The notes below the pieces were generated by a model, which searched no databases, was not told the origin of the DNA, and was given only the letters and a program-made list of their open reading frames with translations. DNA of 64,000 nt from Candidatus Saccharimonadota bacterium (lineage in GTDB: Bacteria; Patescibacteriota; Saccharimonadia; Saccharimonadales; VXPC01), in assembly GCA_026707815.1 (NCBI GenBank), contig JAPOWB010000003.1, positions 131,380 to 195,379 on the forward strand, written 5' to 3'. Each line of letters opens with the position of its first letter. The stretch's first letter is position 1. The position numbers and the translations under genes are program-made. Positions 7,473 to 41,511 of this stretch are shown here, in pieces.

Positions 7473-7482
7473 CCCCCCCCCC
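7473..7482 (+). repeat. C10 homopolymer tract
   Basis: Ten consecutive C directly after the TAA stop of CDS 7224-7472, in an AT-rich genome. Confidence 0.95.
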
Positions 7483-7575
7483 TCATTTTCAGCTGAAAAA
7501 GATTTGTTGCTGGGGAGAAAACTTCAAGCAAAATTATATTGAAGGACTCTGATATACTTTAACTAAGAAGAATTT

Positions 7576-7731
7576 ATGAAGTATTTATCTATTTTATTCA
7601 CTATTTTATTAATTTGGATTTCTATCTTAATTATTGTCGCCGTCAGACCAGAAGAAACTGGTTTTGAATTATTCCTAACTGTTATTGTTTGCACTTTGGC
7701 TTTATTCTTAATCGGCTTCGTTAAAAAATAA
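7576..7731 (+). CDS. Small two-TM membrane protein (51 aa, below ORF-track cutoff)
   Basis: Own translation: MKYLSILFTILLIWISILIIVAVRPEETGFELFLTVIVCTLALFLIGFVKK*. Same hairpin-TM design as CDS 11878-12066. Confidence 0.4.
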   Translation: MKYLSILFTILLIWISILIIVAVRPEETGFELFLTVIVCTLALFLIGFVKK

Positions 7732-7757
7732 TTTTTGAAAAAACTTCTAAAAGGCTA

Positions 7758-9305
7758 ATGAGTCGAGCAGTTATCTTAAAGAAACAAAGACTAGTTGCCA
7801 TTTTTAAGCTCTTGGTTCAATCTTATTATTTAAATCGTCGAGGCAAAAAAGATGCTATGTATAATTTGCTGGGCGATGAATTGCTGAAACTCGGTGGTGT
7901 CTACATTAAGTTTCTCCAAGGGGTTATTTTGCAAAGCTGGTCAATGCAACGTTGGCGAAGCGATAATAAGTTGGATATTTTTGAAGATGTCAGAAGTCCG
8001 AAATTAAATGCTCCCAAAATTTTAAAAAATAATTTAGGAGATAAGTTTGAACGATTGACTGATTTAAGTTCTAAGCCAATAGCTATTGGCTCATTCGGTC
8101 ATGTCTACTTAGCTAAATTAAATAAGAAAGATACCGTCATAGTTAAACTGCTATCTTCAGAGATTCGGAAAACTCTGAAGTTTGATTTGAGACTTTTGAA
8201 ATTCTTCTATCATTGGCATCTCAAAGCCATTAAATTCAACAAAGGCTTAAATGTTCGAGCAATCTTCAATGACTTTAAAAAACAAACTCTCCATGAAATT
8301 GATTACATTGCTGAAGCTGAATTTGCTGATGAGCAATATCACATTTATAAAGATCATCCCAAATTAGTTATCCCAAAGACTTATTTGGAATTATGTACTG
8401 ATGAAGTCATCATTCAAGATTATGTGAAAGGTCTGTCTGTGACTAAATTGTTGAAACTCAAGGAAAAAAAATCTGATTTAGATTTGAAAGATTATGTTAA
8501 AAAAGAGTTTCAAAGCGACTTAGTTAAACAACTTCAGATTTTAGCTTTCGAAATTCTTTGGGCAACATTTCATCAACCATCTGTGATGGGTGATCCCCAT
8601 CCTGGTAATGTTATTATCATGGATAACAATCAGATCGGCTTGATTGATTTCGGTATCAAAGCTCAAAGTTCTAAATACCCAGTTGCTTACTTAAAATTTA
8701 TTAAGGCATATAATCAATTGGATGAGAAAAATTTTAATTTAGAGGAATTCTTTGTTGCTAGTTTACAGTTTTTCGGACGAGATTTATATCTTGCCTTAGA
8801 TAAGCTTGGCAAACTGGTTCCCTCCAATGAAAAAACAGCTACTAATTTTAATCAAGAATTAGCTCGGATTATGCAAAGAGCTTTTGAGGCTGAATTTTCC
8901 AAAAAAGATATTAGCCATTTAATTAGTAGCCCCAAAGCTTTGGTAATTTTTGATCGTCTAGCTAATAAGAATAATCGTTTTGGTTTCAAGCTGACTGTCA
9001 GCGACAGTGAGATGCTCAGAACTTTGGTGACTTTAACTGGACTGATTGATCTGCTGAATTTATATTCAGAAGTCATGACACCAACTTATTTGAAGGTCAT
9101 CCGAAAAGTTGAAACAGAATATCCTGATTTAAAATCCTTAAACGAAACTGAGATTAGTTATAGCCAAGCTTTTAATATTGCCTTTGTCTGGCTAGAAAGA
9201 GTGGCTTCCCATGACCCAAGCTTATTCCAGGGCATGATGCAAAAACTCAGACAGCGTTCAAAAATTTTACAAAAAGAAATTAAGCAAGAAATTGCTGATA
9301 GTTAA
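7758..9305 (+). CDS. ABC1/UbiB-family atypical protein kinase
   Basis: GGVYIKFLQ..., IAIGSFGHVYLAKL, EVIIQDYVKG, GDPHPGNVII and IGLIDFG follow the ABC1/AarF kinase-like motif order. Confidence 0.75.
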   Translation: MSRAVILKKQRLVAIFKLLVQSYYLNRRGKKDAMYNLLGDELLKLGGVYIKFLQGVILQSWSMQRWRSDNKLDIFEDVRSPKLNAPKILKNNLGDKFERLTDLSSKPIAIGSFGHVYLAKLNKKDTVIVKLLSSEIRKTLKFDLRLLKFFYHWHLKAIKFNKGLNVRAIFNDFKKQTLHEIDYIAEAEFADEQYHIYKDHPKLVIPKTYLELCTDEVIIQDYVKGLSVTKLLKLKEKKSDLDLKDYVKKEFQSDLVKQLQILAFEILWATFHQPSVMGDPHPGNVIIMDNNQIGLIDFGIKAQSSKYPVAYLKFIKAYNQLDEKNFNLEEFFVASLQFFGRDLYLALDKLGKLVPSNEKTATNFNQELARIMQRAFEAEFSKKDISHLISSPKALVIFDRLANKNNRFGFKLTVSDSEMLRTLVTLTGLIDLLNLYSEVMTPTYLKVIRKVETEYPDLKSLNETEISYSQAFNIAFVWLERVASHDPSLFQGMMQKLRQRSKILQKEIKQEIADS

Positions 9306-9404
9306 ACTGCTACAAATCAAAAGATACAAAAAAACTCTCTCTGCTCTCTTACGAGATTTTACAAATGCTGCCTGCGAAATGGATGAAAAGTTAACCCTCT
9401 ATCC

Positions 9405-11705
9405 TTAGATCTTATTCTTCTTTCTGCGATTAGAAGAAACTGCAATAATTCCGATAATCACGGCAATAATAATGACCGTCATAATCACCCCAGTCATATC
9501 ATTATCATCATCTGTGGGCTTGGCTTCCTTATCCTCATTATTAGTAGATGAAGCGACTGCATCAGTTTCATCGATAATAATATTAGTGCCTTGATAGGAA
9601 ATTTTACCAGTAGCAGGATCAGTCACTCGAACACAAATACCATTCACAATCTCGCTAGCATTAATTACTCCTGAAGAATCTGCTTGGATTGGAGTAGCAT
9701 TTTCAAAAACTCCCTGATTACAGGGGATATCAGCATTGTTATGGGGGATGTATTCAAAATTTGACAGATCACTGCCATCAGATGAATTACCAAAAACTAA
9801 AAATTGATTTTCTTCAGCGTCGTAACTAACAGTTACCGTTGTTCCTAAATCAGAAGCTTGAGAATTAGTTGGCTGAATTGCAGTCTCACTTGGATTTGAA
9901 TCAACGCTCTCAACTTGAGAATTAGGGACGACTACTTCAGTAGTTGTTTCTTCTTCCTCATTGCTGGGAGCATCATCAATGTCGGCTGGTTGAGTTACCT
10001 CTCTATCATCACCATCAGTTGGGGTAGTCACTGGTGGAGTAGTTGGGGTCACATAGTTTAATTGAGCAATCTGAGATCTTTCATTGCCTCTATTGTCAGT
10101 GGCTTTGATGCAAATCCATCGACCATGTTCGGCTGATGTAGCAGTAATACTCACTTCAGCATCATTGTTTTTGTTATTGTAATTCTCTTTAAGAGAACAC
10201 TGATCATTTTGACTTGAAGCAAACTTCCAATCAACTGATTTAACTCCAGCAGTATCTTCAGCAGTAATCATCAGAGTGCTGCCTGAGACTTTCAAAGTCA
10301 TAGTTGGACTGGCACTATCTTCTACATATTCAATCCAAGCAGATGAAATCATGTTTTCACTATCACCTTCGTTACCTGATCCTTGCCAGCTAGTTATTGC
10401 TTCGCCCCTGTGATTGATACGCTCTACCAGTGTACCCACAAAACAGTATCTACTTCCGATATTTGCTTTGGATAAATCTATTTTCTGATTGTCAATAACT
10501 TTGACGCTTGTAATATCATTGGGATTTTTCTCCATGAACTCATAACAAGTATCATTGCCGGGATCCATTTCTGTCATATAAGCTCTCCATACTACTGGTG
10601 GTGATTCGAAAGCATCAAAGATGTCCAGTTTGCCGGGAATAGTTTTAACTATTAAAGTTTTATCATCTTCATAGGAAATACTTGTCTCGGGAGTTGGGTT
10701 TAAGATTACAGCATCATTAATCTCTATCGCTTCTGTCAAGATATTTTGTACACCTGCAGAAGAGTCATCCAAATCATTACTTAAATCTATTGAATTACCA
10801 AATTTATCTCTAATCATAAAATTGCTACCACCAATATAGTTCATACTAGCTGACCTCTCTAGCGAGTGGAAAAAGTTCGATATATCAAAGCGATATGTTG
10901 AAAAAGTAAGAGTTTGACCACGAGCTAATACTTGGTTGGCTGACAGCGTTGTTGGAAAACTTAAGTCCACATCAAGTTCAAGCACATAAGCCAAATTCTT
11001 TCTTAGAGTCCCTGGTTCAACCTTATTTTCTATATGAATACTAGGCATAAAACTGCGATCACTGTATCTCGCCGTTGTGCGGACTACAATTTCAACTTCT
11101 TCATCAAATTCAATTGAAAAACTAAATCTATCCCCAATATCGGTATAATCATATTTACCACTGATATCAACTTTCTGTTTGTTTTTCAATTTGGGTGGAG
11201 TTAAATCTATTCTAGTATCACTAACTAAGTAAACTGGATCGTAAAGAAGAGCAATCTCGGAAGTATCTCTATTATCCCTATAGACTGCTTCAAAACAAGC
11301 ATATTTATCACTAAAATCTAGAGTTGACTGATTGTCTGTTGTATCAGCATCAATAGTCATCGGTTGAGTAGTTCTTCTGCTAACATTGACTCCAGAGGCA
11401 ATATCAGTAGCATCTGATGCTATGGCATCTTCATCACAATCATCCCTCTCATCAACGGCAGCCACTTTAACGGTGGCTACCCTATGTTCGAGAGGAGATC
11501 TAATTTTAGCCACCAAGATGTTGCCAGTGCCTCTCGAAATATCTTGGATGGAACCACTAGGATGAGCATCGTCGTCGTGAGCTTTGACTAAATTGAGGGG
11601 GGGGGTAATCCCAGAAACGATTAATAGACCAACCAACCCTAGCAGAATAGATGACAAGACCGCCCGCTTTTTATTTACTAAATTTAATATATTTTTTTCA
11701 CGCAT
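9405..11705 (-). CDS. Surface protein with N-terminal signal/anchor, two-cysteine W...C...C modules, acidic Thr/Pro stalk and C-terminal TM anchor
   Basis: N-terminal hydrophobic LSSILLGLVGLLIVSG and C-terminal VIMTVIIIAVIIGIIAVSSNRRKKNKI. Modules such as VDWKFASSQNDQCSL...HGRWICIKATDNRGNE and FEYIPHNNADIPCNQ...NGICVRVTDPATG resemble the repeats of CDS 27709-31815. Confidence 0.8.
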   Translation of the reverse strand: MREKNILNLVNKKRAVLSSILLGLVGLLIVSGITPPLNLVKAHDDDAHPSGSIQDISRGTGNILVAKIRSPLEHRVATVKVAAVDERDDCDEDAIASDATDIASGVNVSRRTTQPMTIDADTTDNQSTLDFSDKYACFEAVYRDNRDTSEIALLYDPVYLVSDTRIDLTPPKLKNKQKVDISGKYDYTDIGDRFSFSIEFDEEVEIVVRTTARYSDRSFMPSIHIENKVEPGTLRKNLAYVLELDVDLSFPTTLSANQVLARGQTLTFSTYRFDISNFFHSLERSASMNYIGGSNFMIRDKFGNSIDLSNDLDDSSAGVQNILTEAIEINDAVILNPTPETSISYEDDKTLIVKTIPGKLDIFDAFESPPVVWRAYMTEMDPGNDTCYEFMEKNPNDITSVKVIDNQKIDLSKANIGSRYCFVGTLVERINHRGEAITSWQGSGNEGDSENMISSAWIEYVEDSASPTMTLKVSGSTLMITAEDTAGVKSVDWKFASSQNDQCSLKENYNNKNNDAEVSITATSAEHGRWICIKATDNRGNERSQIAQLNYVTPTTPPVTTPTDGDDREVTQPADIDDAPSNEEEETTTEVVVPNSQVESVDSNPSETAIQPTNSQASDLGTTVTVSYDAEENQFLVFGNSSDGSDLSNFEYIPHNNADIPCNQGVFENATPIQADSSGVINASEIVNGICVRVTDPATGKISYQGTNIIIDETDAVASSTNNEDKEAKPTDDDNDMTGVIMTVIIIAVIIGIIAVSSNRRKKNKI
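11597..11605 (-). repeat. C9 (coding-strand) homopolymer inside the 5' end of CDS 9405-11705
   Basis: att acc ccc ccc ctc encodes ITPPL, just after the signal/anchor segment. Confidence 0.95.
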
Positions 11706-11743
11706 ACTGAAAACATATTAGCACAATCTTGCAAGATTCTAAT

Positions 11744-11753
11744 CCCCCCCCCC
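11744..11753 (-). repeat. G10 (gene-strand) homopolymer 39 nt upstream of the start of CDS 9405-11705
   Basis: Ten consecutive C on the plus strand. On the gene strand the tract abuts a weak -35 (ATTAGA), then 17 nt, TAATAT, 9 nt and ATG. Confidence 0.9.
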
Positions 11754-11877
11754 TTCTCTCTTAATAGACTATACATTTTGTATTAATTTTATTAATTAAT
11801 TTGCTTACAAAGGATTGTTTAATTTGGCTGGGATTGTTATATAATTGGATTATATAAATTGAGAATGTAAGCATTCT

Positions 11878-12066
11878 ATGTTGAGAGATTTTTTACTATT
11901 TATAAAATATCCATACACTGCTGGGATTATTGCCATTATTTGGTTGGGGTCAGCTTGTTTTTTGGCTTTATCCGATAATATTGATTTAATTCAAGTTGTC
12001 ATCGTTGATCTTTTAACAACTGTTATTATTGCTATTTTTGGCTTCAAAGATAAAAAAGAAATCTAA
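11878..12066 (+). CDS. Small two-TM membrane protein (62 aa)
   Basis: Two hydrophobic helices (AGIIAIIWLGSACFLAL and LLTTVIIAIFGF); no known family. Confidence 0.4.
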   Translation: MLRDFLLFIKYPYTAGIIAIIWLGSACFLALSDNIDLIQVVIVDLLTTVIIAIFGFKDKKEI

Positions 12067-12115
12067 GTTTAAGTCAATTAGCACTTTAAAGAATATTCCA
12101 AAGCTTACAAGCCTA

Positions 12116-16919: not shown

Positions 16920-17651
16920 ATGATTAAGTCAATCAAATTCATCAATCAATCCACTAAGACTTTTAGGCGTGTTCTGAGCATTGCTTTAGTGGTCGCCCTC
17001 GGTTGGTTTGCCTTCAATATAATTAGCCAAACAGCTCATTCGGAGACAGCCCCAACTATAGGGATTAATGTCTCACAAGAAGATTTAAGTTTAGATGAAA
17101 CTGAAACTACAGGGACTTTAACTTTAGTAGCAAGACCTCAATCCGATCAAACTTTAAGTGCCTCTTCTTTGGAATGGAGACGAACCAGTCCAGTTGCTAG
17201 TGGGGATGACAGTACAACAACTGTTAACTGTCAAAACGCTTTTAATGAAGATAGCAATATCGATACAATAGATACTCAAGTTGAAGTAGAAAATGGTCAA
17301 TCCGTCTACAAATTTGAAATCGCAGATATTGATGTCAAGTGGGGGCATAAATTCTGTTTAAGAGTTGAAGATGCTGAGAAGAATATCTATGGGGGAGCGG
17401 AAATCACTCTTGTAAAAACTGCTGACTCCAATTCAAATCCTCCTGCTACACCACCACAACCAGCTGGTGAAACTGAAAGTGATAGCACTGGCGGAGAACC
17501 ACAGGAAGAAGAAGCTGAACCAGCATTACCTGAAACTGGTTTAACTACTACTGAATATAGTGTTCTATTATTTACAGCTATTAGCAGTTCTTTGGCTTGC
17601 TTATTGATTTGGAATGCGATTCGATCTAGTGGTCGACATCTCCAAAACTAA
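16920..17651 (+). CDS. LPXTG (sortase)-anchored surface protein carrying one two-cysteine W...C...C module
   Basis: N-terminal signal/TM. Module is LEWRRTSPVASGDDSTTTVNCQ...WGHKFCLRVEDAEKN, followed by an acidic Pro-rich stalk. C-terminal sorting signal is LPETG plus hydrophobic stretch plus RSSGRHLQN. Confidence 0.8.
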   Translation: MIKSIKFINQSTKTFRRVLSIALVVALGWFAFNIISQTAHSETAPTIGINVSQEDLSLDETETTGTLTLVARPQSDQTLSASSLEWRRTSPVASGDDSTTTVNCQNAFNEDSNIDTIDTQVEVENGQSVYKFEIADIDVKWGHKFCLRVEDAEKNIYGGAEITLVKTADSNSNPPATPPQPAGETESDSTGGEPQEEEAEPALPETGLTTTEYSVLLFTAISSSLACLLIWNAIRSSGRHLQN

Positions 17652-17921
17652 AGTAAAGCAATTGTAAGAGAATTTTAAATTCTTATCTTCTCTAAAGAGA
17701 AAGGAATTCTATTCATGCAGGATTTTAGGGAATCAATTTCTGTTTGTTTGATTTTAAAGATTAGATTTACTATACTGTAGAGGATTGTTTTACATATCAT
17801 ATTTTTATTTTTGATGATTTACCTGAAGTCTTTGAAGTCCGACTTGAAAGATTGTTGTCTCTCTTTTTGTTGTTGTGATGTTTGTTGTTTTACTAACACA
17901 CAATCTTAATCCAAAGAAATT

Positions 17922-18536
17922 ATGTTTAATAAAGTTAGAAAGATTGCTCAACAAAGCGGTTTTACCGGCATTGAGTTATTGATGGTCTTAGTAATTGTCA
18001 TTATTGTGGCAGTTTTGGTCACCAATAATATTCAACAAGCTAATGCTAAAGCCCGAGACTTGGAAAGACGGAGCGATATCAATGCTATTCATGATGCCTT
18101 GGAAGATTATTGGCATCTCAATGAAGCTTATCCCGGTGATTTGAATGGTGTTAGCATTGATGAAGCCAATACACTCGATCCTAGTGGTAATTCCATTATT
18201 GCCAACCCAGCTGAAGCTTCAACGCATAAGCCTGTCAGCAGTTACGCTGTTGATCAGCCTCAAAATGAATATACCTATGCTCCCTATAATTGTGAAATCA
18301 GCCAAATTGATCATGTAGCTGATGATCAACAAGAAACTGAAATTGAAGAAGACCCTATAGATATTATTGTCGATGGTTGTCAACAATACGTCTTATATAG
18401 TTGGCTAGAAGTTGCTGAAGAAAATGCAACTACTTATGAGAGAACTAATAGCCATAATCTCCAAATTGTTTTAGAGGAAGAATCTCCAAGTGATCAGTCT
18501 GAAGACGTAATTGAAGAAAACGAAAATAGCTTATAA
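17922..18536 (+). CDS. Type IV pilin-like protein (prepilin N-terminal cleavage/methylation domain)
   Basis: MFNKVRKIAQQSG|FTGIELLMVLVIVIIVAVLV has Gly at -1, Glu at +5 and a hydrophobic helix. The C-terminus is acidic. Confidence 0.8.
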   Translation: MFNKVRKIAQQSGFTGIELLMVLVIVIIVAVLVTNNIQQANAKARDLERRSDINAIHDALEDYWHLNEAYPGDLNGVSIDEANTLDPSGNSIIANPAEASTHKPVSSYAVDQPQNEYTYAPYNCEISQIDHVADDQQETEIEEDPIDIIVDGCQQYVLYSWLEVAEENATTYERTNSHNLQIVLEEESPSDQSEDVIEENENSL

Positions 18537-18615
18537 TCTTTTGTCGTATCTCTATCTTCAATTAAAGCCCTCTGTCTCATTAGCGGAAATTGTCGTTGCT
18601 TGCTAATTGCTAAAA

Positions 18616-19266
18616 TTAATCAACGACAATATTATAGTCTCGAGTAAATTGCATGCGAGTTTGCATTAGGATTTTAATAAAATATTCAGGATTTGGGCAG
18701 TATATAAAGACAAAATTCGCCTGTTCACCAGAAGTTTCGATAGTGAGAGTTCCATAGTTTAATAAATGAGCAAAAAATCCAGATCGGATGACTGTTACAT
18801 CCTCTATATCAACTAAATTTAAAGTGGAAATCTTGGTTGAGAATAAGGCTGTTCTTTGTCGTTGACAAACTTCTAATTGATTGATGATTAGCTGGTTATC
18901 GGTATAAATCTTGTGGATGACCACAAAGATAGCCAGCAAGATAAAGATAGCCAGCAAGATACCCAAAAAAGATAGATCGGACAAAGTGCGGTCAGTAACC
19001 GTCATTAAGGTTAAAATTACGAATAGACTGAGTCCTAAAAGACAGACAGCATAAATAACAACTAGACCAAACCAATGTCTCTTAACGACTATGATTTGTT
19101 GATTGTCTGGTTGGGGTGATTTTAATTTTGAATGAGTTGAGGGATTTAGGGGCTTAGTTTGTTTGGTTGAGGTTTTCTGGGATTGGGACAGATTAGTAGC
19201 TTTAGCTCTGGTCTTGGATTGAGTTTTAGAACTTGATTTGGGTGCTTTAGACTGGGCTTTAGCCAT
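18616..19266 (-). CDS. Membrane protein with bacterial PH domain (bPH_2/YdbT-like)
   Basis: A basic disordered N-terminus, then KRHWFGLVV with two TM helices, then IEDVTVIRSGFFAHLLNYGTLTIETSG, typical of DUF304/bPH_2. Confidence 0.6.
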   Translation of the reverse strand: MAKAQSKAPKSSSKTQSKTRAKATNLSQSQKTSTKQTKPLNPSTHSKLKSPQPDNQQIIVVKRHWFGLVVIYAVCLLGLSLFVILTLMTVTDRTLSDLSFLGILLAIFILLAIFVVIHKIYTDNQLIINQLEVCQRQRTALFSTKISTLNLVDIEDVTVIRSGFFAHLLNYGTLTIETSGEQANFVFIYCPNPEYFIKILMQTRMQFTRDYNIVVD

Positions 19267-19384
19267 TGTATTTAAATTTTAGCCTATATATTCAATTATA
19301 TGTCAAAGACATAGATTTCTTTAAAAGATTCACTTAGTGCTGGTTGTTAGACAGCATATCTTTTTGATCCAAAAAGGCCCTTGC

Positions 19385-19900
19385 CTATTTTTTAGAAACC
19401 ACAGCTTGATAAGACTTAATGCTATGAGTTAAAGCGACGGCCAAACCGTCGGCATGATTATCATTTTTGATTTTATCGGGCAAATTCAAGGCCTTTTGGA
19501 CTTCGGTTTTAATTTGAGCTTTAGTAGCTCGACCATAACCAGTCATAGTTAATTTAACTTGCAAAGGCGTATATTCAACAATCTCTAAATTCTTTTGCTG
19601 GCAAGCTAGCATTAAGACTCCCTGAGCTTGAGCAACCTGAATCCCAGAAGTAATGTTTTTAAAAAAGAATAATTTCTCCATGCTAATAATTTCTGGTTGA
19701 AATTCATCAATAATCTCCAATAGTCGCTGATGAATAATAGCCAGTCGTCGAGAAATAACATCATCCTTAGAGGTGCTGATAATACCTCCAGCCAAACATT
19801 GATGGTCTTGCCCATCACTTGAAATCATGCCCCAACCGACAGTTTCTAGTCCTGGATCGATGCCTAAAATTTTTAAAGAAACGGGTTTAGTCTTAACCAT
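19385..19900 (-). CDS. ruvC: Holliday junction resolvase RuvC
   Basis: ILGIDPGLETVGWG start, an EKLFFFKN region and C-terminal DGLAVALTH. Confidence 0.85.
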   Translation of the reverse strand: MVKTKPVSLKILGIDPGLETVGWGMISSDGQDHQCLAGGIISTSKDDVISRRLAIIHQRLLEIIDEFQPEIISMEKLFFFKNITSGIQVAQAQGVLMLACQQKNLEIVEYTPLQVKLTMTGYGRATKAQIKTEVQKALNLPDKIKNDNHADGLAVALTHSIKSYQAVVSKK

Positions 19901-20603
19901 CTGCTAAATTAGTATATATATTTAAAGAGTCAGGTAGATCTTCTAAAACTGCCAGCAGTTTATTCAATTTGAGTTTTAATAAATCATCAATCTCAAGAGT
20001 AGTTTTTGGTTTATAAGTCAGACCAGCATGTTCAATTTGAATATTTTGATCTTTGATAGCTTCAACTAGGCGATGGAAATCTTTGACTGGACAAAGAAGA
20101 CTGTAGGTTCGATTATCAATTTCAGAAATATCTTCAACTCCCAACTCCAAAAACTGAAGCATTTGATCATCATCTAAATCAGTGACTATAATTTCACCGA
20201 GATGCTGAAAATTAAAAATAACTGAGCCGACATCAGCGATACTGCCCCCATACTTGCTTAAACTAGCTTTAATTTCTGGATAAGTACGTTTGCGATTATT
20301 GGTCGCACACTGGATTAATAAAGCGACTCCGCCATGAGCATAAGCCTCATAAACAATCTCTTCTAAAGCTTCAGCTGATTTATCAGCTACTCGTTTAACA
20401 GCTCTATCAATAGTCGATTGAGGCATATTAAAAGATCTAGCCGTCTCAATGGCTAGAGCTAAACTTGTGTTGGTTGAAGGATCTGTGCCTTGCCGAGCGG
20501 CAATGGCAATTTGATTACCCAACTTAGTGAAAACTGTCCCTCTCTTAGCATCATTGCTAGCTTTATCTCGCTTAATTTTTGCCCACTTACTGTGTCCAGC
20601 CAT
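19893..20603 (-). CDS. yebC: YebC/PmpR-family DNA-binding regulator
   Basis: MAGHSKWAKIKRDKASNDAKRG is the signature N-terminus. Confidence 0.9.
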   Translation of the reverse strand: MAGHSKWAKIKRDKASNDAKRGTVFTKLGNQIAIAARQGTDPSTNTSLALAIETARSFNMPQSTIDRAVKRVADKSAEALEEIVYEAYAHGGVALLIQCATNNRKRTYPEIKASLSKYGGSIADVGSVIFNFQHLGEIIVTDLDDDQMLQFLELGVEDISEIDNRTYSLLCPVKDFHRLVEAIKDQNIQIEHAGLTYKPKTTLEIDDLLKLKLNKLLAVLEDLPDSLNIYTNLADG

Positions 20604-20678: not shown

Positions 20679-21275
20679 CTAGGTAATATTAAAAGCTAAA
20701 CCAGATTGATTTAAATCTAAATTGGTTAAATTAGCTAGAATAACTCCGAAAGCTAAAATATCGGCTAAATAAACTTGCTGGAATTTAGTATAGTTTTGAT
20801 GTTCTATAGCTTCTGCTAAACGACCGTTTAATTTAATAAGATGTAAGGTATGATGTCTTAATTGCTGACTGGCTGACCAATTCATAACCTGCTGGTGAAA
20901 TAAATAATCATGCAAAGCCTGAGCTTGTTGAATTTCATGCCAGTTGGTAGTCTGTTCTATATGAAAAGAAGGGCTTGATTGATGATTTGAAATTTTAGAT
21001 GTATTAGAGGATCTTGATTCCAATTCTGACAGCCTATTGGCATAAGCTTGTTTTAAATCAACTTGCCAATAATCTGCCATATCCCCAGCTAAAGATATTA
21101 AGTTCTGAGCAACAATTTGCGCTTGGTCAAACTGTAGCTCTTGGTTATTAGCATGTATATTGTCTGCAATGAAAAGATCAACTAAACTAATAGTCTCAAC
21201 CAACAAACGTCGCCCAAATACTTCAACTCGGACTAAACTTAATTCAGGGGTATGTGACTCGTACATTTGAAACAA
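20679..21275 (-). CDS. Hypothetical protein (198 aa)
   Basis: ORF only; helical, no motif confidently recognised. Confidence 0.35.
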   Translation of the reverse strand: MFQMYESHTPELSLVRVEVFGRRLLVETISLVDLFIADNIHANNQELQFDQAQIVAQNLISLAGDMADYWQVDLKQAYANRLSELESRSSNTSKISNHQSSPSFHIEQTTNWHEIQQAQALHDYLFHQQVMNWSASQQLRHHTLHLIKLNGRLAEAIEHQNYTKFQQVYLADILAFGVILANLTNLDLNQSGLAFNIT

Positions 21276-21295: not shown

Positions 21296-21625
21296 GTTGA
21301 AATTATTGCAGAGGCCATCGGAATTAAATCACATTTTTCATGTAATGATACTATCTTTACCTCAAACTCTAATAATTCAGCTAGAGAGAGATTGACAGGG
21401 CGAAGTCTGTATAGATTAGTCAAATCTCTTTTAAAAGAGCTGAATATAGATAAAGATATTCATAGTTTCAGACATTTTTTTGTTACCCAATTAATAGACA
21501 ATGGTTTTGAAATTATGCAGACAATGAAACTATCAAGGCATAAATCTTTACCGATGATGCAGGTTTATTATGATGAAAGGCAAAGCCTTGAATTTACTGA
21601 TGAAATGTTAAATAGTTTGAGATAG
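21296..21625 (+). pseudogene. C-terminal fragment of a tyrosine recombinase/integrase
   Basis: The open frame from 21296 has no plausible N-terminal domain. It reads LTGRSLYRLVKSLLKELNIDKDIHSFRHFFVTQLIDNGFEIMQTMKLSRHKSLPMMQVYYD, giving HxxR, a second His and a catalytic Tyr context. Confidence 0.7.
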
Positions 21626-21675: not shown

Positions 21676-21861
21676 GTGGTTAGCTTGATGTCTAATTACA
21701 AGCAATACCTTACCCAAGCCGAAGCAGATGCCTTTTTAAAATCAGTTGATGTCAATAGAGATAAACACATATCCCTTGCAGTAAAGAGTAAGCAAGGTTT
21801 AGATGCTATTACGAGTATTGCTTTAGGGGTTACTGGGTTATGTGGGGGGGGGCAGTATTGA
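21676..21861 (+). CDS. Hypothetical protein (61 aa) ending in a G9 tract
   Basis: ORF only. The last codons tgt ggg ggg ggg cag tat tga contain the homopolymer. Confidence 0.3.
   Translation: MVSLMSNYKQYLTQAEADAFLKSVDVNRDKHISLAVKSKQGLDAITSIALGVTGLCGGGQY
21844..21852 (+). repeat. G9 homopolymer tract 5 nt upstream of the -35 of the cassette promoter
   Basis: tgtGGGGGGGGGcagtaTTGATT. Confidence 0.95.
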
Positions 21862-21886
21862 TTTTTATCTGTAAAAATGATATAAT
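21858..21886 (+). promoter_or_regulatory. Sigma70-type promoter with extended -10 for CDS 21898-22455 (copy of 2399-2427)
   Basis: TTGATT, identical 17-nt spacer tttatctgtaaaaatga and TATAAT, then 11 nt to ATG 21898. Confidence 0.7.
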
Positions 21887-21897: not shown

Positions 21898-22455
21898 ATG
21901 ATAAATAAAAATACTATTAAATTTCCTACAGATAATATAGAAAGACAATATAATGCTGATGATAATTTAGAAAGACATACCTATATTCGTATGATGGTAA
22001 AAAATAAATTAAACAACACCCTTAAATTTTCTAGAAATAATATAGAAAGACACTATGATGCTCTTGGTAATTTAAAAGGATATACCAGCTATGAATATAA
22101 TGATGATGATAGGTTAAAGTCGTATACCGAGGTTAAATGTGATGCTAATGGTAATCCGATTAAACAAGAACGATATGATGCTGATGGTCATTTAAAAGGA
22201 TATACCAACTATGAATATAATCGTGATGGTAGGTTAAAGTCGTATACCAAGTTTGAATGTGATGGTAATCTGATTACAAAAGAATACTATTATGCTAATG
22301 GTGAGAGGTTGAACAAAGAATACAAAGAATACTATGATACTGATGGTAGGTTAAAGTTCTATTTTAGGTATGAATATAATGGTGATGGTGATTTGATTGC
22401 AAAAGACAGCTATACTGGTGATGGTGATTTAGTAAATACCACGTATTACCACTAA
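21898..22455 (+). CDS. YD-like repeat protein without signal peptide
   Basis: Repeats YDALGNLKGYTSYEYNDDDRLKSY, CDANGNPIKQERYDADGHLKGY... and a C-terminus DGDLVNTTYYH. Confidence 0.75.
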   Translation: MINKNTIKFPTDNIERQYNADDNLERHTYIRMMVKNKLNNTLKFSRNNIERHYDALGNLKGYTSYEYNDDDRLKSYTEVKCDANGNPIKQERYDADGHLKGYTNYEYNRDGRLKSYTKFECDGNLITKEYYYANGERLNKEYKEYYDTDGRLKFYFRYEYNGDGDLIAKDSYTGDGDLVNTTYYH

Positions 22456-22493
22456 TTGATTTTTACCCCATAAAAAGTATATAACCCTAATAA

Positions 22494-22525
22494 CCCCCCC
22501 CCTTAATTAGGGGGTTTTGTTTTTT
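22494..22525 (+). terminator. Intrinsic terminator-like hairpin whose 5' arm is a C9 tract
   Basis: CCCCCCCCC-TTAATTA-GGGGG followed by TTTTGTTTTTT. Lies between the two cassette genes. Confidence 0.65.
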
Positions 22526-22556
22526 GGTAATTGATTATGAGATATACTTATAATCA

Positions 22557-23531
22557 ATGAATAAAAAGCTAATCATTATTCTTGCCAGCATCATTGTCTT
22601 ACTGGTTGGGATAGGTATAACCATCTATGCTTTAACTAGTGATGATGAAGTAAAAATAGTAAAATCTGATGATACTACAAACAATACGCCAGATACAGAT
22701 AAAGAAGCTCAAACTAGTAAGCCAGTTGATACTACTAAAGAAGTAAAGCCAGTTGATAAAGCTCCAGCTGATGCCCCCAAAGATAAAACAGAATGTCCTA
22801 AAGATACAGATTACAGAAAACATACTTGTGATACTGGTGGCAATGTGATTAAATCAGAAATCTATGATGATGGTAAGTTAGGGGGGTATGTTCAGTTTGA
22901 ATACAATGCTAATGGTAAGTTGATTAAACAAGATGTTTATGATACTGATGGTAATTTGGCTTGGACTGAACACTATGATGTAGATGGTAATTTGATTGAA
23001 ACTATCTCACATAAAGATAAAACAGAATGCCCTAAAGATACAGATATCAAAAAATATATTTGTGATGCTGATGGTAATGTGATTAAAAGAGAACACTATG
23101 ATGTTGATGGTAAGTTAAAGTGGTATTACAAATATGAATATGATGCTGACGGCAATGTGATTAAAAGAGAATGGCATAATTATAATGCTGATGGTAAGTT
23201 AAGGGGGTATTACAAATATGAATATGATGCTGATGGTAATGAGATTAAATATGAACACTATGATACTGATGGTAATTTAAGGGGATATAATAAGTCTGAA
23301 TATGATGCTGATGGTAATAGAGTTAAATTTGAATACTATGGTGCTGATGGTAATCTTATTCAGCAAGACCACTATGATGCTGATGGTAATGTGATTAAAA
23401 GAGAAAACTATGACGCTGATGGTAATTCAAAGGGATATGAGAAGTATGAATATGATGCTGATGGTAATCAGATTAAATCAGAATGGTTTGATGGTGATGG
23501 TAAGTTGATAAATACTAGGTATTACCACTAA
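22557..23531 (+). CDS. Membrane-anchored YD-like repeat protein with internal module duplication
   Basis: The leader MNKKLIIILASIIVLLVGIGITIYALTS matches CDS 1825-2319. The KDKTECPKDTD..C.. module occurs twice (nt ~22781 and ~23013). Long run of YEYDADGNxIKxE / YDxDGKLxGYYK repeats, ending DGDGKLINTRYYH. Confidence 0.8.
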   Translation: MNKKLIIILASIIVLLVGIGITIYALTSDDEVKIVKSDDTTNNTPDTDKEAQTSKPVDTTKEVKPVDKAPADAPKDKTECPKDTDYRKHTCDTGGNVIKSEIYDDGKLGGYVQFEYNANGKLIKQDVYDTDGNLAWTEHYDVDGNLIETISHKDKTECPKDTDIKKYICDADGNVIKREHYDVDGKLKWYYKYEYDADGNVIKREWHNYNADGKLRGYYKYEYDADGNEIKYEHYDTDGNLRGYNKSEYDADGNRVKFEYYGADGNLIQQDHYDADGNVIKRENYDADGNSKGYEKYEYDADGNQIKSEWFDGDGKLINTRYYH

Positions 23532-27138: not shown

Positions 27139-27139
27139 T

Positions 27140-34393: not shown

Positions 34394-34395
34394 AA

Positions 34396-36369: not shown

Positions 36370-38271
36370 ATGGTAAAAAAAGAGACTTTAGCCAGTGATT
36401 CAAAAGTTGAAAATTGTGAAAATTTGACTGATTCAAATCAGCTTGAAAGCATTCTGTCTTTACTAGAATGGATTGTCAAAAATGATGCCAATCCTGAATC
36501 CTTGGAGATGATTCAAAAAACGATTGAAGATAAATTCTCAGAGATTGATGATATTGCTCAATATTCTGATAGATTAAATCAACTAAGAAACCAAATATCT
36601 GATTTATCCCAACCAAACTCTGTCGGTGATTTAGTAGAAACTAATCCTGAAACTAAAATTAAGTCCATCACTCCAGCTGGGATTGATTATTTAAAGCCAA
36701 TTGTCACTAATAGTGATAGTAATGTTTATGCCTTTAAAGATTCGTACAGTCCAATCACTATTGCTGCCAGTATGGCAAGATTAAGTCGACGAGGTGATGA
36801 TTTGAGGATTACTTTATTGGAGGAATTTAGTGATTCTGAATTGGCTAAAGATGAATCCTTGCTTAAAAGAGTTATATCGGCTTACGGCGATGATTCTGTC
36901 CAACAATTAGCTGGACAACATGTCGTCGTTGAGGGCGCTAGCAATTTACTGACCAAAAAATTAGAATGGGGTCGTCTAGCTAGTTATTTAGAACAATCAA
37001 CCCGTTATATTTTCTTTGACCAAAAAGATCAATCGGGAGCATATAAATATGTCACTCCACCGGAAGTCTTAAAAGACGATCGACTAGCTGATTTTTATCA
37101 AAACGTCTGTGATAGATTATTCGTTAATTATTCTGAATTAGTCCGAGCTTTGACTGATTACAGCCGAACTGTTAATCCCAGACCTCAAGACAGAGGCGAG
37201 GTTATTGCTTGGCAGAATGCGACTAGAGCAGCTGCTTGTGATGTAGCTCGCAATATTTTGCCGGTTGCTACTAAATCAACAGTTGGTATTTTTGCTTCAG
37301 GACAAGCTTTAGAATACTTAATTATGAGACTCTTGAGCGATGACCTAGCCGAAGCCCAGCAAACAGGTCAAGCTATCTTAAATGAAAGCCGTCAAACCAT
37401 GGGAGTCTTTTTGGAAAGAGCTGATTTACCTGATCGAGGTGGAGCTTATTCCATGTATCAAGCTCAAACTCGGCAATCTCTCCGCAAAATTATTAAAGAG
37501 TATCCAGAACTGCAACCAGCTTCCGATGTCTCGGAAGAAGAAAAATCTGAGATTATTCATCCATTCGCTGAATTAATGAATTACAACTACCCCAATGAAT
37601 TAGATTTAGTTGCTGATATGCTTTATGATCAGACTCATCTTTCATTAGAGGATTTAAGGACACTCATTGATCAGTGGACGGTTGGAGCAAAATTAGAAGT
37701 TTTCCAAGCCTATATTGGCGACCGACTCAATCGTCGACATAAACCAGGTCGAGCCTTGGAAAAGATTCATTATGAATGGGATATTGTCTCAGATTATGGC
37801 ATCTTCCGAGACTTACAACGACATCGTATGATCGAAGATTTAACTTGGCAAACTCTAACTCCTCAAACCGTATCCTTTGAAAACTATCCAATCCCTGATC
37901 TCGTTGACAAAACTAACTTTCAAAGCTTATGGCAGCAATCATTTCAGCTGTCTGAACGCCTATTCAATGTCCTGCTAGAAGAAACCAGCGATCAGGTGGC
38001 TCAGTATGCCACTCTCTTGGGACATTACATGCGCTGGAAAATGAGTTATAACGCTCGCCAAGCCTTTCATATTCATGAATTAAGAACTACACCTCAGGGA
38101 CATCCTAGTTATCGACGATTGGTTAATCAAATGCATGAACAAATTAGCAAAATACATCCTCTCATAGGAGAAGCTATGAAATTCGTTAATCAAGATGAAG
38201 ATCCAGCCCTAGCTCGTTTAGCTGCTGAACGTTATCAGCAATATAAACTAAATCAGTTAACCAATAACTAA
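36370..38271 (+). CDS. Tandem-domain ThyX-like (FAD-dependent thymidylate synthase family) protein, 633 aa
   Basis: First half has LEWGRLASYLEQSTRY: the S..E.S.RY part of the ThyX motif is kept but RHR is replaced by WGR. Second half has DLQRHRMIED: RHR is kept but the serine part is lost. Genomic context is dcd-tmk. Confidence 0.6.
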   Translation: MVKKETLASDSKVENCENLTDSNQLESILSLLEWIVKNDANPESLEMIQKTIEDKFSEIDDIAQYSDRLNQLRNQISDLSQPNSVGDLVETNPETKIKSITPAGIDYLKPIVTNSDSNVYAFKDSYSPITIAASMARLSRRGDDLRITLLEEFSDSELAKDESLLKRVISAYGDDSVQQLAGQHVVVEGASNLLTKKLEWGRLASYLEQSTRYIFFDQKDQSGAYKYVTPPEVLKDDRLADFYQNVCDRLFVNYSELVRALTDYSRTVNPRPQDRGEVIAWQNATRAAACDVARNILPVATKSTVGIFASGQALEYLIMRLLSDDLAEAQQTGQAILNESRQTMGVFLERADLPDRGGAYSMYQAQTRQSLRKIIKEYPELQPASDVSEEEKSEIIHPFAELMNYNYPNELDLVADMLYDQTHLSLEDLRTLIDQWTVGAKLEVFQAYIGDRLNRRHKPGRALEKIHYEWDIVSDYGIFRDLQRHRMIEDLTWQTLTPQTVSFENYPIPDLVDKTNFQSLWQQSFQLSERLFNVLLEETSDQVAQYATLLGHYMRWKMSYNARQAFHIHELRTTPQGHPSYRRLVNQMHEQISKIHPLIGEAMKFVNQDEDPALARLAAERYQQYKLNQLTNN

Positions 38272-38338
38272 TTCCCTTTCTCTCTGTATGTGAGAAATTA
38301 TTTTCTTAGCGCCTACTTCTGAATAAAGAAAGCTGAAA

Positions 38339-38587
38339 CTAGAAAAACAAAACAGCTTCGACAGATTGTTGAGGCACGAAATATATTGCCGATTGGTAAT
38401 GATCCCCCTGGAGATAGACTCCATTTGAACTGACAAAAATAATTCTCTTAATTAAAGGCAACTGCTGAAATTTGAAATAAGCAATTTGTCCGACTTGGAA
38501 TTGGTTAGTTTTTCGCAAAACAACTAATTGCTTATTCTTCAAAGTTGGATACATGCTCTGACCCCGAATTTTACGAATTAAAAACAT
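38339..38587 (-). CDS. sodX: S26-type signal-peptidase-like protease, probable Ni-SOD maturation protease
   Basis: IRGQSMYPTLKNKQLVV...LIKRII gives the Ser/Lys dyad context. Lies immediately downstream of sodN. Confidence 0.65.
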   Translation of the reverse strand: MFLIRKIRGQSMYPTLKNKQLVVLRKTNQFQVGQIAYFKFQQLPLIKRIIFVSSNGVYLQGDHYQSAIYFVPQQSVEAVLFF

Positions 38588-38684
38588 GACACAAGTTATT
38601 TTAAGGAATACCTAAAGCATTAATTCACAAGTATTAGGAATTGAAGCCTTGAGACAAATTAACATCATGCCTAAAGAGAGTTGT

Positions 38685-39056
38685 TCAGGCTGCCTCTTTA
38701 AAGATTTTATCCAAAGCTTCAATTTGATTAATAAAATCTTCAACGATTTTAATATCAGCATTTTGCTTAATTAGGCTGCATTGCTGAGCCATAATATAAA
38801 GCTGATTATGTAACTGGGGATTAGCTTGGTAATGATGAGCTTTGAAATAATCGCTCCAAAGTATATAGATTTGTTGTTTGCAAATCTGAGTATGCTCTTC
38901 TTTAAGCATAATCAGACGAATATATTGAGCTTCTGAGGGAGTTAAATCTAGTAGTTTTTTAGCTAATTTCAAGCAAGTCAGAGCTGAATTTTTTAAAGTA
39001 TCTGTTTCATAATGTCCACATGGACCATCGCAATGGGCATCAACTATTTTAAACAT
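38685..39056 (-). CDS. sodN: Nickel superoxide dismutase precursor
   Basis: MFKIVDA|HCDGPCGHY is the Ni-hook HCxxPCGxY behind a short leader. LWSDYFK and LDKIF are conserved as in Streptomyces SodN. Confidence 0.85.
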   Translation of the reverse strand: MFKIVDAHCDGPCGHYETDTLKNSALTCLKLAKKLLDLTPSEAQYIRLIMLKEEHTQICKQQIYILWSDYFKAHHYQANPQLHNQLYIMAQQCSLIKQNADIKIVEDFINQIEALDKIFKEAA

Positions 39057-39078
39057 AAACTCATTTTATATCTTAAAC

Positions 39079-39741: not shown

Positions 39742-40202
39742 AGATCAAGATCATTTAAATCATCTAGCTCTTTTTGGGTTTGCTTCAATAAAGAATCGCT
39801 TGATGCAGGCTTGTCTGATTCTGCTGGGGTATCTTGAGCAAATTCATTGACAATCTCCTCTTCGTCGGAAGAATCAGCTTCTTGAGAAGCTGGTGAATTT
39901 TCGACTTCATCAACGGCTGGTTTCTCTGCATTTCTTGGTGAATAAGATTCTTCTCGGCTGCTATTCTCATCCGCAATCCTCAAATTATAATGAGCTTCGT
40001 TTTTGCTACCCAAAGCTCTAAGGAGAGTTCTCAAGCTCTGAGCCGTTGAACCTTTACGTCCAATCACTCGACCTAAATCCTCCGAAGCAACATGCAAAGT
40101 TAATAAAACACCCCTCTCATCTATAGTCCGCTCAACTTTGACTTCATCGGGCTTATTAACTAGGGCAGAAATAATATATTTAACAAATTCTTGATCTATC
40201 AT
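39738..40202 (-). CDS. KH-domain RNA-binding protein (KhpA/YlqC-like) with acidic C-terminal extension
   Basis: LGRVIGRKGSTAQSLRTLLRALG is the KH GxxG core. Gene order is rpsP-KH-trmD. TGA stop. Confidence 0.8.
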   Translation of the reverse strand: MIDQEFVKYIISALVNKPDEVKVERTIDERGVLLTLHVASEDLGRVIGRKGSTAQSLRTLLRALGSKNEAHYNLRIADENSSREESYSPRNAEKPAVDEVENSPASQEADSSDEEEIVNEFAQDTPAESDKPASSDSLLKQTQKELDDLNDLDL

Positions 40203-40297
40203 ACCTTATCCTTCTCTTGAGATATATTCTAAATTTTCAAACTTCTAAAAAAGAAAACTACTCTATATAGTAGCAAAAAACATAAGAATTATTAAAA

Positions 40298-40825
40298 TTA
40301 TTTTGGCTTTTTATCTGTTGTTGCAGCTGTATCATCGGTAGAATCATCTGCTTGAGCTGTTTGTAGTTGAGCTTCTGAGTCAGATTCTGAAGTTTGGCTT
40401 GCTTCAGAAGTTGATTGATTGTCATTGACAACAGTAGCAGTCTGATCATCAGCCTTAGTATCTTTAGTAATTGTCTGAGATTCATCTGAGTTAGCTTTTG
40501 ATGCAGTCTCAGATGATTGATTGCGGCGAAGTTTATCAGGATATTTGATTTTGGATTGTTTAATCGCTGGTTTCTTTACCCATTTAGGTAAATCTATCTT
40601 TTGGCTGGTTAAAAAATAAACCACTCTTTGAGAGGGTTGCGCTCCATGCTTTAAATAATGCTCAACTTTAGCTAAATCAATGCCATGCTCTTTAGTGTGA
40701 GGATTATAAAAACCTAAATTGGCAATAACTTTGCCTGAGGTTGGTGTACGACGAGAATCTTGAACTACCATCCGAAACTGGGCATGCTTTTTCCGACCTG
40801 TTCTTTGTAATCTAATGCTAACCAT
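40298..40825 (-). CDS. rpsP: 30S ribosomal protein bS16 with long low-complexity C-terminal extension
   Basis: MVSIRLQRTGRKKHAQFRMVVQDSRRTPTSGKVIANLGFYNP. Confidence 0.9.
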   Translation of the reverse strand: MVSIRLQRTGRKKHAQFRMVVQDSRRTPTSGKVIANLGFYNPHTKEHGIDLAKVEHYLKHGAQPSQRVVYFLTSQKIDLPKWVKKPAIKQSKIKYPDKLRRNQSSETASKANSDESQTITKDTKADDQTATVVNDNQSTSEASQTSESDSEAQLQTAQADDSTDDTAATTDKKPK

Positions 40826-40977
40826 AATTGCCCAATATATAAAATTGACGCTGAAAAGTCATTCTAGCTAGCTTTAATAAATTTGTCAAAAATCCAAAAA
40901 CTCCCTTCAAAACAATCTGCCATATAATTTGCTATAATCTATATAAAATGGTATAAAAGTAGGAATTTATAGAAGCA

Positions 40978-41511
40978 ATGTCTAAATTTGAATCATTTAC
41001 CCCCCCCCGCCACCGCGATCTTATAGTTGATATCACTGAAAGATTGGATCAGCCAAATAATTGTATCAATGGTAATTTTGAGATTAATAAAAATTATCAG
41101 CCAGAAACAACTAAGATTTCTGAAGCCACCAAAACTCAACCAGAAATTGTAGAGATTATCCCTTCCCCGACTATCGTTGATTGCAATCATTTGCCAAAAA
41201 TGAAAGTCAGGCTGAAAAACAGAAAAATTGCTGTTGTCAGTAAAAAACCAACCCCCATTAAAAAAGACTGGCATCAAGATGCTGCTTGTCGGGGTTTAAT
41301 TGATTTATTCTATAAGGAATATCCAACTAAAGAAGATACAACTAAAGTGAAAGACTTGTGCTGTCGTTGCCCAGTCGTTTCTTCCTGTTTAGAAACTGGG
41401 TTGACTGCTAATCGGGGAATCCCAGAAAAATTTGGAATTTGGGCTGGTTTCAACTCAAGAGAACTCTCGAAAATTCATCGAGCCCGGCAGGCAGATAGAA
41501 AATTCAGCTAA
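40978..41511 (+). CDS. WhiB-like (Wbl) Fe-S transcription factor with ~95-aa N-terminal extension
   Basis: WHQDAACRG...(x)...LCCRCPVVSSCLETGL...FGIWAGFNSRE gives four Cys in C-Xn-C-X2-C-X5-C spacing plus the G[IV]WGG-like turn. Confidence 0.75.
   Translation: MSKFESFTPPRHRDLIVDITERLDQPNNCINGNFEINKNYQPETTKISEATKTQPEIVEIIPSPTIVDCNHLPKMKVRLKNRKIAVVSKKPTPIKKDWHQDAACRGLIDLFYKEYPTKEDTTKVKDLCCRCPVVSSCLETGLTANRGIPEKFGIWAGFNSRELSKIHRARQADRKFS
41000..41008 (+). repeat. C9 homopolymer in codons 8-11 of the WhiB-like gene
   Basis: ttt acc ccc ccc cgc (FTPPR). Confidence 0.95.

Follow-up and report, generated by a model that had tools for sequence, protein, structure and literature searches.

Six uninterrupted runs of nine or ten G or C nucleotides (nt) in a stretch of 64 kb with a GC content of only 36.1% (C 18.4%, G 17.7%) raise the question whether such tracts are accidents of composition or whether their length matters for the genes beside them. 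The stretch, a section of contig JAPOWB010000003.1 called “the window” in the following, comes from a member of Candidatus Saccharibacteria (TM7) found in a sponge metagenome. The answer that is given the most weight here is that the long G/C runs are probably hypermutable simple sequence repeats (SSRs) acting as slipped-strand phase-variation loci, and that at least three of them, the tracts T2, T3, and T6 of Table 1, are placed such that a change of length would alter the output of a gene. These three may behave as “switches”; T1, T4, and T5 are unproven as such because T1 and T4 show no length variant and T5 was sampled in just one other assembly.

In the initial annotation of the window, six G/C tracts of 9 to 10 nt had been listed, the number expected by chance had been estimated at far below one, and the next longest runs had been given as 6 to 7 nt. 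All of this held when the runs were counted in the whole window. Exactly six G/C runs of at least 9 nt were present, each where it had been placed, followed by a single G7 and seven 6-mers, with none of 8 nt. The longest A/T run had at most 8 nt although the window is 64% AT. Markov models of order 1 to 5, evaluated analytically with the tracts masked, led to an expectation of 0.03 to 0.24 G/C runs of at least 9 nt, which corresponds to a Poisson probability of at most 2e-7 for six or more of them. A scan of the window with Rfam yielded two tRNAs only and no RNA family at any tract.

Table 1. Positions of the six long G/C tracts in the window and of the genes and promoter-like sites associated with them
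Feature	Sequence	Position	Strand	Description
T1	C10	7473..7482	+	Run census
T2	G9 (C9 in gene orientation)	11597..11605	-	Run census
T3	C10 (G10 in gene orientation)	11744..11753	-	Run census
T4	G9	21844..21852	+	Run census
T5	C9	22494..22502	+	Run census
T6	C9	41000..41008	+	Run census
Gene of the presumed surface protein		9405..11705	-	766 aa, acidic, Ser/Thr-rich, signal-peptide-like N terminus, C-terminal membrane anchor
Promoter-like site at T3 (candidate, sigma-70 type)	TTAAGA (11764-11759), 17-nt spacer, TAGAAT (11741-11736)	11736..11764	-	
Promoter-like site at T4	TTGATT (21858-21863), 17-nt spacer, TATAAT (21881-21886)	21858..21886	+	11 nt before the ATG (21898)
WhiB-family regulator gene		40978..41511	+	177 aa from the ATG at C9; Pfam PF02467

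The positions of the tracts were not evenly distributed either. Five of the six were located in intergenic DNA or in the first 40 codons of genes, which together account for 25% of the window (binomial P for at least five of six, 0.005), and the sixth, T4, overlapped the 3' end of a questionable open reading frame (ORF) of 57 to 61 amino acids (aa). The claim that all of the tracts occupy regulatory or 5'-coding positions is supported as a skew in placement; T1, for which no target was identified, stands apart, and whether T4 and T5 are placed such that their length would matter is ambiguous. Enrichment of SSRs in N-terminal coding regions is regarded as a sign of phase variation, and polyG and polyC are the most mutable and most avoided type of SSR in prokaryotes (PMC3315296).

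For comparison, sequences encoding identical proteins were collected from sponge metagenomes, namely the SPIRE-style ENA assemblies ROBB21 and SHAF22, the Logan assemblies ERR500xxxx and SRR10996932, and metagenome-assembled genomes (MAGs) deposited at NCBI as Candidatus Saccharibacteria bacterium. The look-up for identical proteins returned no record for the 198-aa protein encoded at 20679-21275. The resulting contigs belong to three lineages within the species, with a DNA identity of 98 to 99%: lineage 1 with the window, L001, L005, L008 to L010, and L180; lineage 2 with L002 to L004, L006, L007, and L174 to L176; and lineage 3 with L172, L173, L177, and L179. Because independent assemblies reproduce the tracts, these are not the artefact of one assembly. 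A GTDB-wide scan with RNase Y found nearly exclusively Saccharibacteria, the closest species (L011) being 77% identical and the representative genome of the species itself not being among the hits, and a scan of JGI metagenomes with the same protein, which returned relatives of at most 68% identity that were used as the baseline, gave no tract homologues. The baseline of 160 other Saccharibacteria loci (2.08 Mb, mostly more GC-rich than the window) contained four G/C runs of at least 8 nt, of which three were situated at the end of a contig or close to it. The density of tracts in the window is about 49-fold that of these loci. The tract excess is specific to the lineage of the window, possibly also including L011. 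In L011, a sponge MAG with 58% GC, a G10 and a G9 with a distance of 68 nt occur where a contig ends in AT-rich sequence (8577-8653), and the unrelated Saccharibacteria locus L109 contains a lone intergenic G9 adjoining TAAAAT (17006-17014); beyond these two cases, long G/C tracts are missing from 2 Mb of the phylum.

If the tracts are hypermutable, they should differ in length between closely related sequences. A comparison across related MAGs, which had been suggested as a check, was positive for T2 (G8, G9, or G10), T3 (C9, C10, or C10 plus one base), and T6 (C7, C9, or C10). Three of the six long G/C tracts were thus length-variable, compared to none of the 31 G/C runs and four of the 291 A/T runs of 5 to 8 nt (3/6 versus 4/322, Fisher P = 1e-4). 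Between near-identical contigs, length polymorphism was confined to the tracts. L002 differed from L003 over 18,740 bp and from L004 over 11,401 bp solely in T2, with no mismatch in either case; L172 and L177 differed over 14,562 bp, again with no mismatch, solely in T6; and L174 and L176, which originate from different studies, shared 5,186 bp with two mismatches and T6 as the sole indel. In each of the three lineages, T2, T3, and T6 have remained long.

Such differences could come from sequencing or assembly errors at tracts that are stable in the organism, since homopolymers are error-prone on every platform, and the discordant T2 alleles G8 and G10 as well as one T6 allele stem from NCBI MAGs that possibly share reads with the concordant ENA and Logan assemblies. 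An origin in error is very improbable when the remaining sequences are considered. The tracts themselves were recovered repeatedly, by at least three assembly pipelines and in at least two studies. The T6 alleles C7 and C10 were each reproduced in two or three assemblies, C7 and C9 are 2 nt apart, and the difference between L174 and L176 extends across studies. The same contig pairs agree at every A/T 7- to 8-mer and at every other shared G/C tract, and a general homopolymer error is argued against because no further homopolymer difference occurs in these pairs.

The clearest consequence of a change in length was observed for T2, which forms codons 34 to 37 (I-T-P-P-L) of a 766-aa gene and is located in the c-region of the signal peptide, just past its hydrophobic core. 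The gene is in frame with 9 nt only. Frame analysis gave truncated products of 38 aa for G8 and 49 aa for G10. Seven of nine assemblies (G9 in the window, L001, L003, L004, L006, L007, and L180) were in frame, L002 (G8) and L179 (G10) being the two others, and in public gene calls the out-of-frame alleles appear as proteins of 702 aa from an internal start instead of 766 aa. The 766-aa product contains hydrophobic segments at residues 12-40 and 734-761 and 15.9% Asp plus Glu, is annotated as “hypothetical protein” in the NCBI MAGs, and matched no Pfam family; it is presumed to be a surface protein under the control of T2 and T3. A paralog of the same architecture is 36% identical. T2 aligns to a gap of three residues in this paralog and is an insertion relative to the signal peptide of the paralog.

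T3 is located 39 to 48 nt upstream of the ATG of the same gene, within the spacer (17 nt) of a site that resembles a promoter, agrees with the consensus in nine of 12 positions by pattern match, and is situated 30 nt upstream of the ORF. A second candidate −10 motif, TAATAT, is present 9 nt upstream of the ATG. The spacer has 17 nt in lineage 1 (C10), 16 nt in lineage 2 (C9), and 18 nt in lineage 3 (T plus G10). Lineages 2 and 3 also contain a 10-bp insertion, AAAGATAAAA, that is, one helical turn, in the region of window position 11735, directly downstream of TAGAAT and adjoining T3.

The surface-protein gene and its paralog exhibit a few further features. L001 and the window differed over 21.5 kb solely by 14 mismatches within about 95 bp of the surface-protein gene at 10119-10214 (SSQNDQCSLKEN versus SHKDDQCSVRED). 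This patch is part of a block of about 96 aa that is 100% identical between the surface protein and the paralog of 807 aa, which are otherwise about 30% identical (L178, 11339-11782), and each cluster of paralogs contains both alleles of the patch. Gene conversion between the paralogous surface genes seems to be at work, which would be a second route to diversification of the same gene. A diversity-generating retroelement was rejected as the origin, given that the substitutions show no bias towards A and that the patch is simply the allele of the other lineages and of the paralog; no internal repeat was found in the surface-protein gene. Gene calls for the paralog (P0016 and P0017) are shortened at the N terminus, 775 and 776 aa compared to 807 aa, in the two NCBI MAGs with an out-of-frame T2. 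The 5' region of the paralog in L178 contains a run of six Ts and no G/C tract.

A G10 occurs elsewhere in the species, outside the window, within 7621-7640 of L178. It is located in the spacer of a TTGGCT-17-TATATA promoter-like site 18 nt upstream of a gene for GmrSD (type IV restriction), with the same geometry as T3, and is a candidate for a further switch, in this case of a defence gene.

T6 occupies codons 8 to 11 (T-P-P-R) of a gene that had been called WhiB-like, an assignment confirmed by a match of residues 98-162 to PF02467 (E = 1.5e-11, 45.1 bits, cut-off 23.6). The four conserved cysteines of the family, C-x(n)-C-x2-C-x5-C, are visible in ...AACRG...DLCCRCPVVSSCLE. The tract is carried by a non-conserved N-terminal extension of about 95 aa. 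In nine sequences verified at the DNA level, T6 was C9 (window, L009, L010, L176, and L177), C10 (L172 and L173), or C7 (L174 and L175), and alleles recurred across assemblies, C7 also being found in one NCBI MAG and C10 in P0008. The corresponding N termini can be seen in public gene calls as MSKFESFTPPRH (177 aa), MNHLPPPRH (174 aa), and MNHLPPRH (173 aa). One additional fragment from a comparison anchored at RNase III ended before T6.

With C9, the gene is read from its ATG, and according to frame analysis C7 and C10 close this frame after 16 to 17 codons, with a product of 15 to 17 aa. With C7 or C10, the WhiB ORF can be entered from an alternative start, the TTG at 40988-40990. We infer that WhiB is reduced, OFF, or produced as an isoform with a different N terminus in C7 and C10, because these alleles end the ATG frame and leave only the TTG in the other frame. 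All nine alleles were in one of the two frames that retain a start, none being C8 or C11. Because none falls into the startless frame, this small sample hints that WhiB may not be simply dispensable. WhiB proteins are typical of Actinobacteria and their phages. Here, the gene is located in a Saccharibacteria genome, a single cluster at 90% identity was found for the protein, and the literature that pairs WhiB with Saccharibacteria concerns the actinobacterial host.

The remaining tracts differ from T2, T3, and T6. T1 directly follows the TAA stop of an 82-aa ORF (7224-7472) and precedes a membrane ORF of 51 aa (7576-7731) by 93 nt. It is C10 in the window, L001, and L180 but C4TC5 in L002, L003, and L179, which represent the two other lineages. 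No promoter or terminator match covers T1, and its folding is unremarkable. The small ORFs adjoining T1, T3, and T4 matched no Pfam family. T4 encodes the end, CGGGQY-stop, of the 57-aa ORF, and is situated 5 nt upstream of TTGATT, the −35 motif in the promoter-like site assigned to the RHS/DUF2963-repeat gene 21898-22455, so that its position near a −35 motif was confirmed. Because an identical promoter core is present without a tract in the paralogous module at 2398-2428, the TTGATT-17-TATAAT site is supported as a functional one. In lineage 3, the tail of the ORF reads CGGQQY, and the tract is therefore interrupted there. T5 separates the tandem pair of repeat-protein genes and contributes its last five Cs as the 5' arm to a hairpin (22498-22514), which is followed by a U-run (22515-22525). 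In the paralogous copy of this region, 2349-2365, the half with G5 and the U-run is present and the poly-C is missing. The one other assembly available for T5, L001, also contained C9. T5 is scarcely sampled because assemblies break at the paralogous repeat genes, and a DnaJ-anchored contig extending toward T4 and T5 ends about 300 bp short of them, inside a repeat gene. There are two sets of these paralogous RHS/DUF2963-repeat genes, one head-to-head (1825-2873) and one in tandem (21898-23531), with near-identical promoter cores. The assemblies of the other lineages break here, and a C-terminal fragment of a tyrosine recombinase (about 21300-21625) immediately precedes the tandem set. The signature of slipped-strand contingency loci that had been attributed to all six tracts thus fits T2, T3, and T6, which vary in length, better than T1 and T4, in which substitutions interrupt the tract in other lineages. 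T1, T4, and T5 may be young or in decay, or their presence may be incidental.

The features of T4 and T5 could mean that the tracts are DNA or RNA elements with a fixed function, for which length would be irrelevant: an arm of a terminator (T5), a substitute for an upstream element or a protein-binding site (T4 and T3), scars at the junctions of gene modules that were duplicated or moved by an integrase (T4 and T5), or hairpins between C- and G-runs. In agreement with this, T5 belongs to a hairpin followed by a U-run, T4 and T5 mark exactly the upstream edges of duplicated promoter-gene modules beside an integrase fragment, and T4 was G9 in four assemblies from two lineages (window, L001, L002, and L005 of lineages 1 and 2). 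As a common explanation, fixed functions are quite improbable. They leave the frameshifting alleles of T2 and T6, the sole indels between near-identical contigs, unexplained, and the paralogous modules use the same promoter core without a tract. The role of T5 as a terminator arm, as initially proposed, is reflected in the hairpin and the U-run, but just five of its nine Cs pair and the fold is no better than that of shuffled sequence (z = −0.18).

A pair of runs that could form a hairpin was present in L174 of lineage 2. After window position 48255, this contig diverges into a strain-specific island (17270-20522) in place of the region 48256+ of the window. The island contains a gene for a 663-aa Ser/Thr kinase and, in intergenic DNA, a C11 and a G9 that are separated by 36 nt, inverted, and able to pair. 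Their fold of −28 kcal/mol agrees with a structural function, but folding was not better than shuffled sequence for T1, T5, or this pair, the hairpin z-scores being −0.18 and −0.58.

Alternatively, the tracts may be hypermutable without being adaptive. In a genome without mismatch repair, they would arise by point mutation and slippage and survive only where indels are tolerated, such as in intergenic DNA, N-terminal extensions that can be dispensed with, and accessory genes that are not essential, and their placement would result from purifying selection elsewhere. T1 and T4, which come or go by single substitutions between lineages at unchanged length, and the lack of a recognizable target for T1 fit this explanation, as do the non-conserved extension that contains T6, the two of three frames in which WhiB stays open, and a paralog that could compensate for the surface protein. 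Tolerance alone is not sufficient to produce tracts because other Saccharibacteria, also without MutS and MutL, are nearly free of them in 2.08 Mb despite a higher GC content. Moreover, the run lengths are bimodal with no run of 8 nt and one of 7 nt, T2, T3, and T6 are long in all three lineages with T2 mostly in frame, and two tracts on one surface gene plus one between the −35 and −10 motifs of a restriction gene are classic contingency targets. A non-adaptive origin is unlikely.

For phase variation, the following sequence of events is proposed. During replication, the nascent and the template strand would misalign within a G/C run of 9 to 10 nt, and in the absence of mismatch repair, a gained or lost base would stay. 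The lineage of the window probably lacks MutS and MutL like its phylum, since families of neither protein were detected in Saccharibacteria (Jaffe et al., PMC8406219). At T2, 9 bases would keep the frame (“ON”) and 8 or 10 would cut the product short (“OFF”), in a reversible manner. The length of T3 would set the distance between the −35 and −10 motifs to 16, 17, or 18 nt and could act as a “volume control” of expression on top of the ON/OFF switch of T2. T6 would shift the cell between a WhiB protein initiated at ATG and one that is initiated at TTG or absent. The population would then be a mix of surface and regulatory states, and its adaptive value may be that of bet-hedging.

A number of observations weigh against an assignment of the tracts to phase-variation loci. 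All sequences compared are the consensus of an assembly, in which read-level heterogeneity within one population is not visible. Several of the pairs with zero mismatches may be re-assemblies of one sample, L174 versus L176 being the only pair that is certainly from different studies, and the NCBI MAGs are the outliers at T2 and, in lineage 3, at T6. Because of this, the differences in T2 and in the T6 of lineage 3 could be choices of the assembler at a heterogeneous or error-prone site, and discordance in pairs from one sample may indicate a mixed population or the behaviour of the assembler. The length of T3 follows the lineage with no variation within any of them, and promoter consensus matches are as common in shuffled sequence (19 found versus 18 expected). 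T1 and T4 were interrupted by substitutions in other lineages, with no length variant, and T5 is essentially unsampled. Because the TTG keeps the WhiB ORF open in the C7 and C10 alleles, T6 is possibly no genuine OFF switch. Finally, the window encodes neither MutS nor MutL in its 64 kb, and their probable lack in this genome is taken from the literature on the phylum.

Among pathogens adapted to a host, slipped-strand phase variation is a classic strategy, and the tracts can be compared to several such systems. About one tract per 10 kb of sampled DNA is apparent here, and C. jejuni (Campylobacter jejuni) contains roughly 30 tracts per 1.6 Mb. This bacterium also combines a small AT-rich genome with the lack of a functional MutS/MutL-type repair, which for the window is taken from the phylum literature. 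Likewise, its G/C tracts of about 8 to 11 nt reside in 5' coding and intergenic positions of genes for surface structures and restriction-type functions, single-base indels lead to ON and OFF frames, and tract lengths differ between otherwise identical strains. The targets are glycosyltransferase and flagellar genes in C. jejuni but a membrane-anchored protein, WhiB, and RHS/DUF2963-repeat genes here, and the sponge symbiont, a member of the Saccharibacteria within the Candidate Phyla Radiation (CPR), is known from metagenomes alone, unlike C. jejuni. The poly-G/C contingency loci of C. jejuni were reportedly treated by Parkhill in 2000 and Bayliss in 2012 (as cited in PMC5380846). Switching rates of about 1/200 to 1/1500 per division are given for them (PMC5380846).

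A promoter spacer containing a homopolymer, as assumed for T3 (16, 17, or 18 nt) and the GmrSD gene of L178 (17 nt), resembles the arrangement in Neisseria, as does the combination of a promoter tract and a coding tract on one gene; unlike in Neisseria, the promoters here are candidates from consensus matches. In Neisseria meningitidis, homopolymers occupy the promoter spacers of porA (poly-G) and of opc and fetA (poly-C). The G/C run between the −35 and −10 motifs sets the length of the spacer and the strength of the promoter, and one gene may carry tracts in the promoter and in the coding region. Neisseria possesses mismatch repair.

A repeat in the coding sequence of a regulator would switch a regulon at random, and T6 is comparable in this respect to the poly-C of bvgS in Bordetella pertussis, the homopolymers in flgS and flgR of C. 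jejuni, and the methyltransferase “phasevarions” (PMC5909438). Unlike these, the candidate regulator at T6 is a WhiB-family Fe-S protein, neither a two-component sensor nor a DNA methyltransferase. The tract is situated in the first 11 codons, and the TTG keeps two of three frames open, so that initiation or the N terminus may be altered with no clean OFF state. In the surface lipoproteins of Mycoplasma (vlp and vsa), homopolymers are located in promoters or coding regions, mostly as poly-A or dinucleotide tracts, or variation proceeds by site-specific inversion. Mycoplasma is similarly a host-dependent bacterium with a minimal genome in which surface proteins are varied by short repeats and recombination of paralogs, here represented by the identical block of about 96 aa. 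The runs of the window are G/C runs, unlike those of Mycoplasma.

The mechanism itself, poly-G/C phase variation of the Campylobacter and Neisseria type, is already known; new are its phylum, WhiB as a target, and the density that is apparent here. The suggestion that such loci had not been described for CPR-type bacteria is consistent with a full-text search of a paper library, in which no report was found that links contingency loci, homopolymeric tracts, or phase variation to Saccharibacteria, Patescibacteria, or the CPR. The sole CPR paper found to mention slipped-strand mispairing deals with an in-frame array of 9-mer repeats in a Gracilibacterium (PMC6851277), and a review on phase variation from 2025 mentions neither CPR bacteria nor symbionts.

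CPR/Patescibacteria are thought to be attached to host cells, and little is known about how their surface facing the host or phages varies. If phase variation occurs, the surface protein, WhiB, and GmrSD would be candidates for host-attachment and defence loci in an uncultured symbiont, and the phylum-wide lack of MutS and MutL would be exploitable locally. Frameshifted “pseudogenes” and N-terminally short gene calls in such MAGs, for instance those of 702 aa and 173 or 174 aa, may then be OFF-phase alleles instead of errors. An extended version of this scenario is possible but doubtful as a whole: a dense genome-wide “phasome” with about one poly-G/C switch per 10 kb, composed of a randomly switching global regulator WhiB with two start codons in two frames, a doubly controlled surface adhesin, gene conversion between paralogs, and a switchable GmrSD, which together would vary the host-contact surface and the phage defence of an ultrasmall episymbiont without mismatch repair. 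In this case, the WhiB switch would be comparable to a phasevarion, a regulon switch that needs no methyltransferase and in which most tract lengths still yield a protein.

Other genes of the window were conspicuous for reasons independent of the tracts. The gene of an N6/N4 DNA methyltransferase (3209-4033, plus strand) contains an in-frame TGA at 3644-3646 in lineage 1 (window, L001, and L180), whereas the codon is CGA in lineages 2 and 3, in which the gene is intact with 273 aa. This split is a lineage-specific nonsense mutation with no involvement of a repeat. A 633-aa ORF at 36370-38271 (plus strand) contains a Thy1 (ThyX) domain and is far longer than a usual ThyX. According to precomputed Pfam hits, a gene for a nickel superoxide dismutase is located beside the gene of a small S24/S26-type peptidase in the region 38339-39056 (minus strand).

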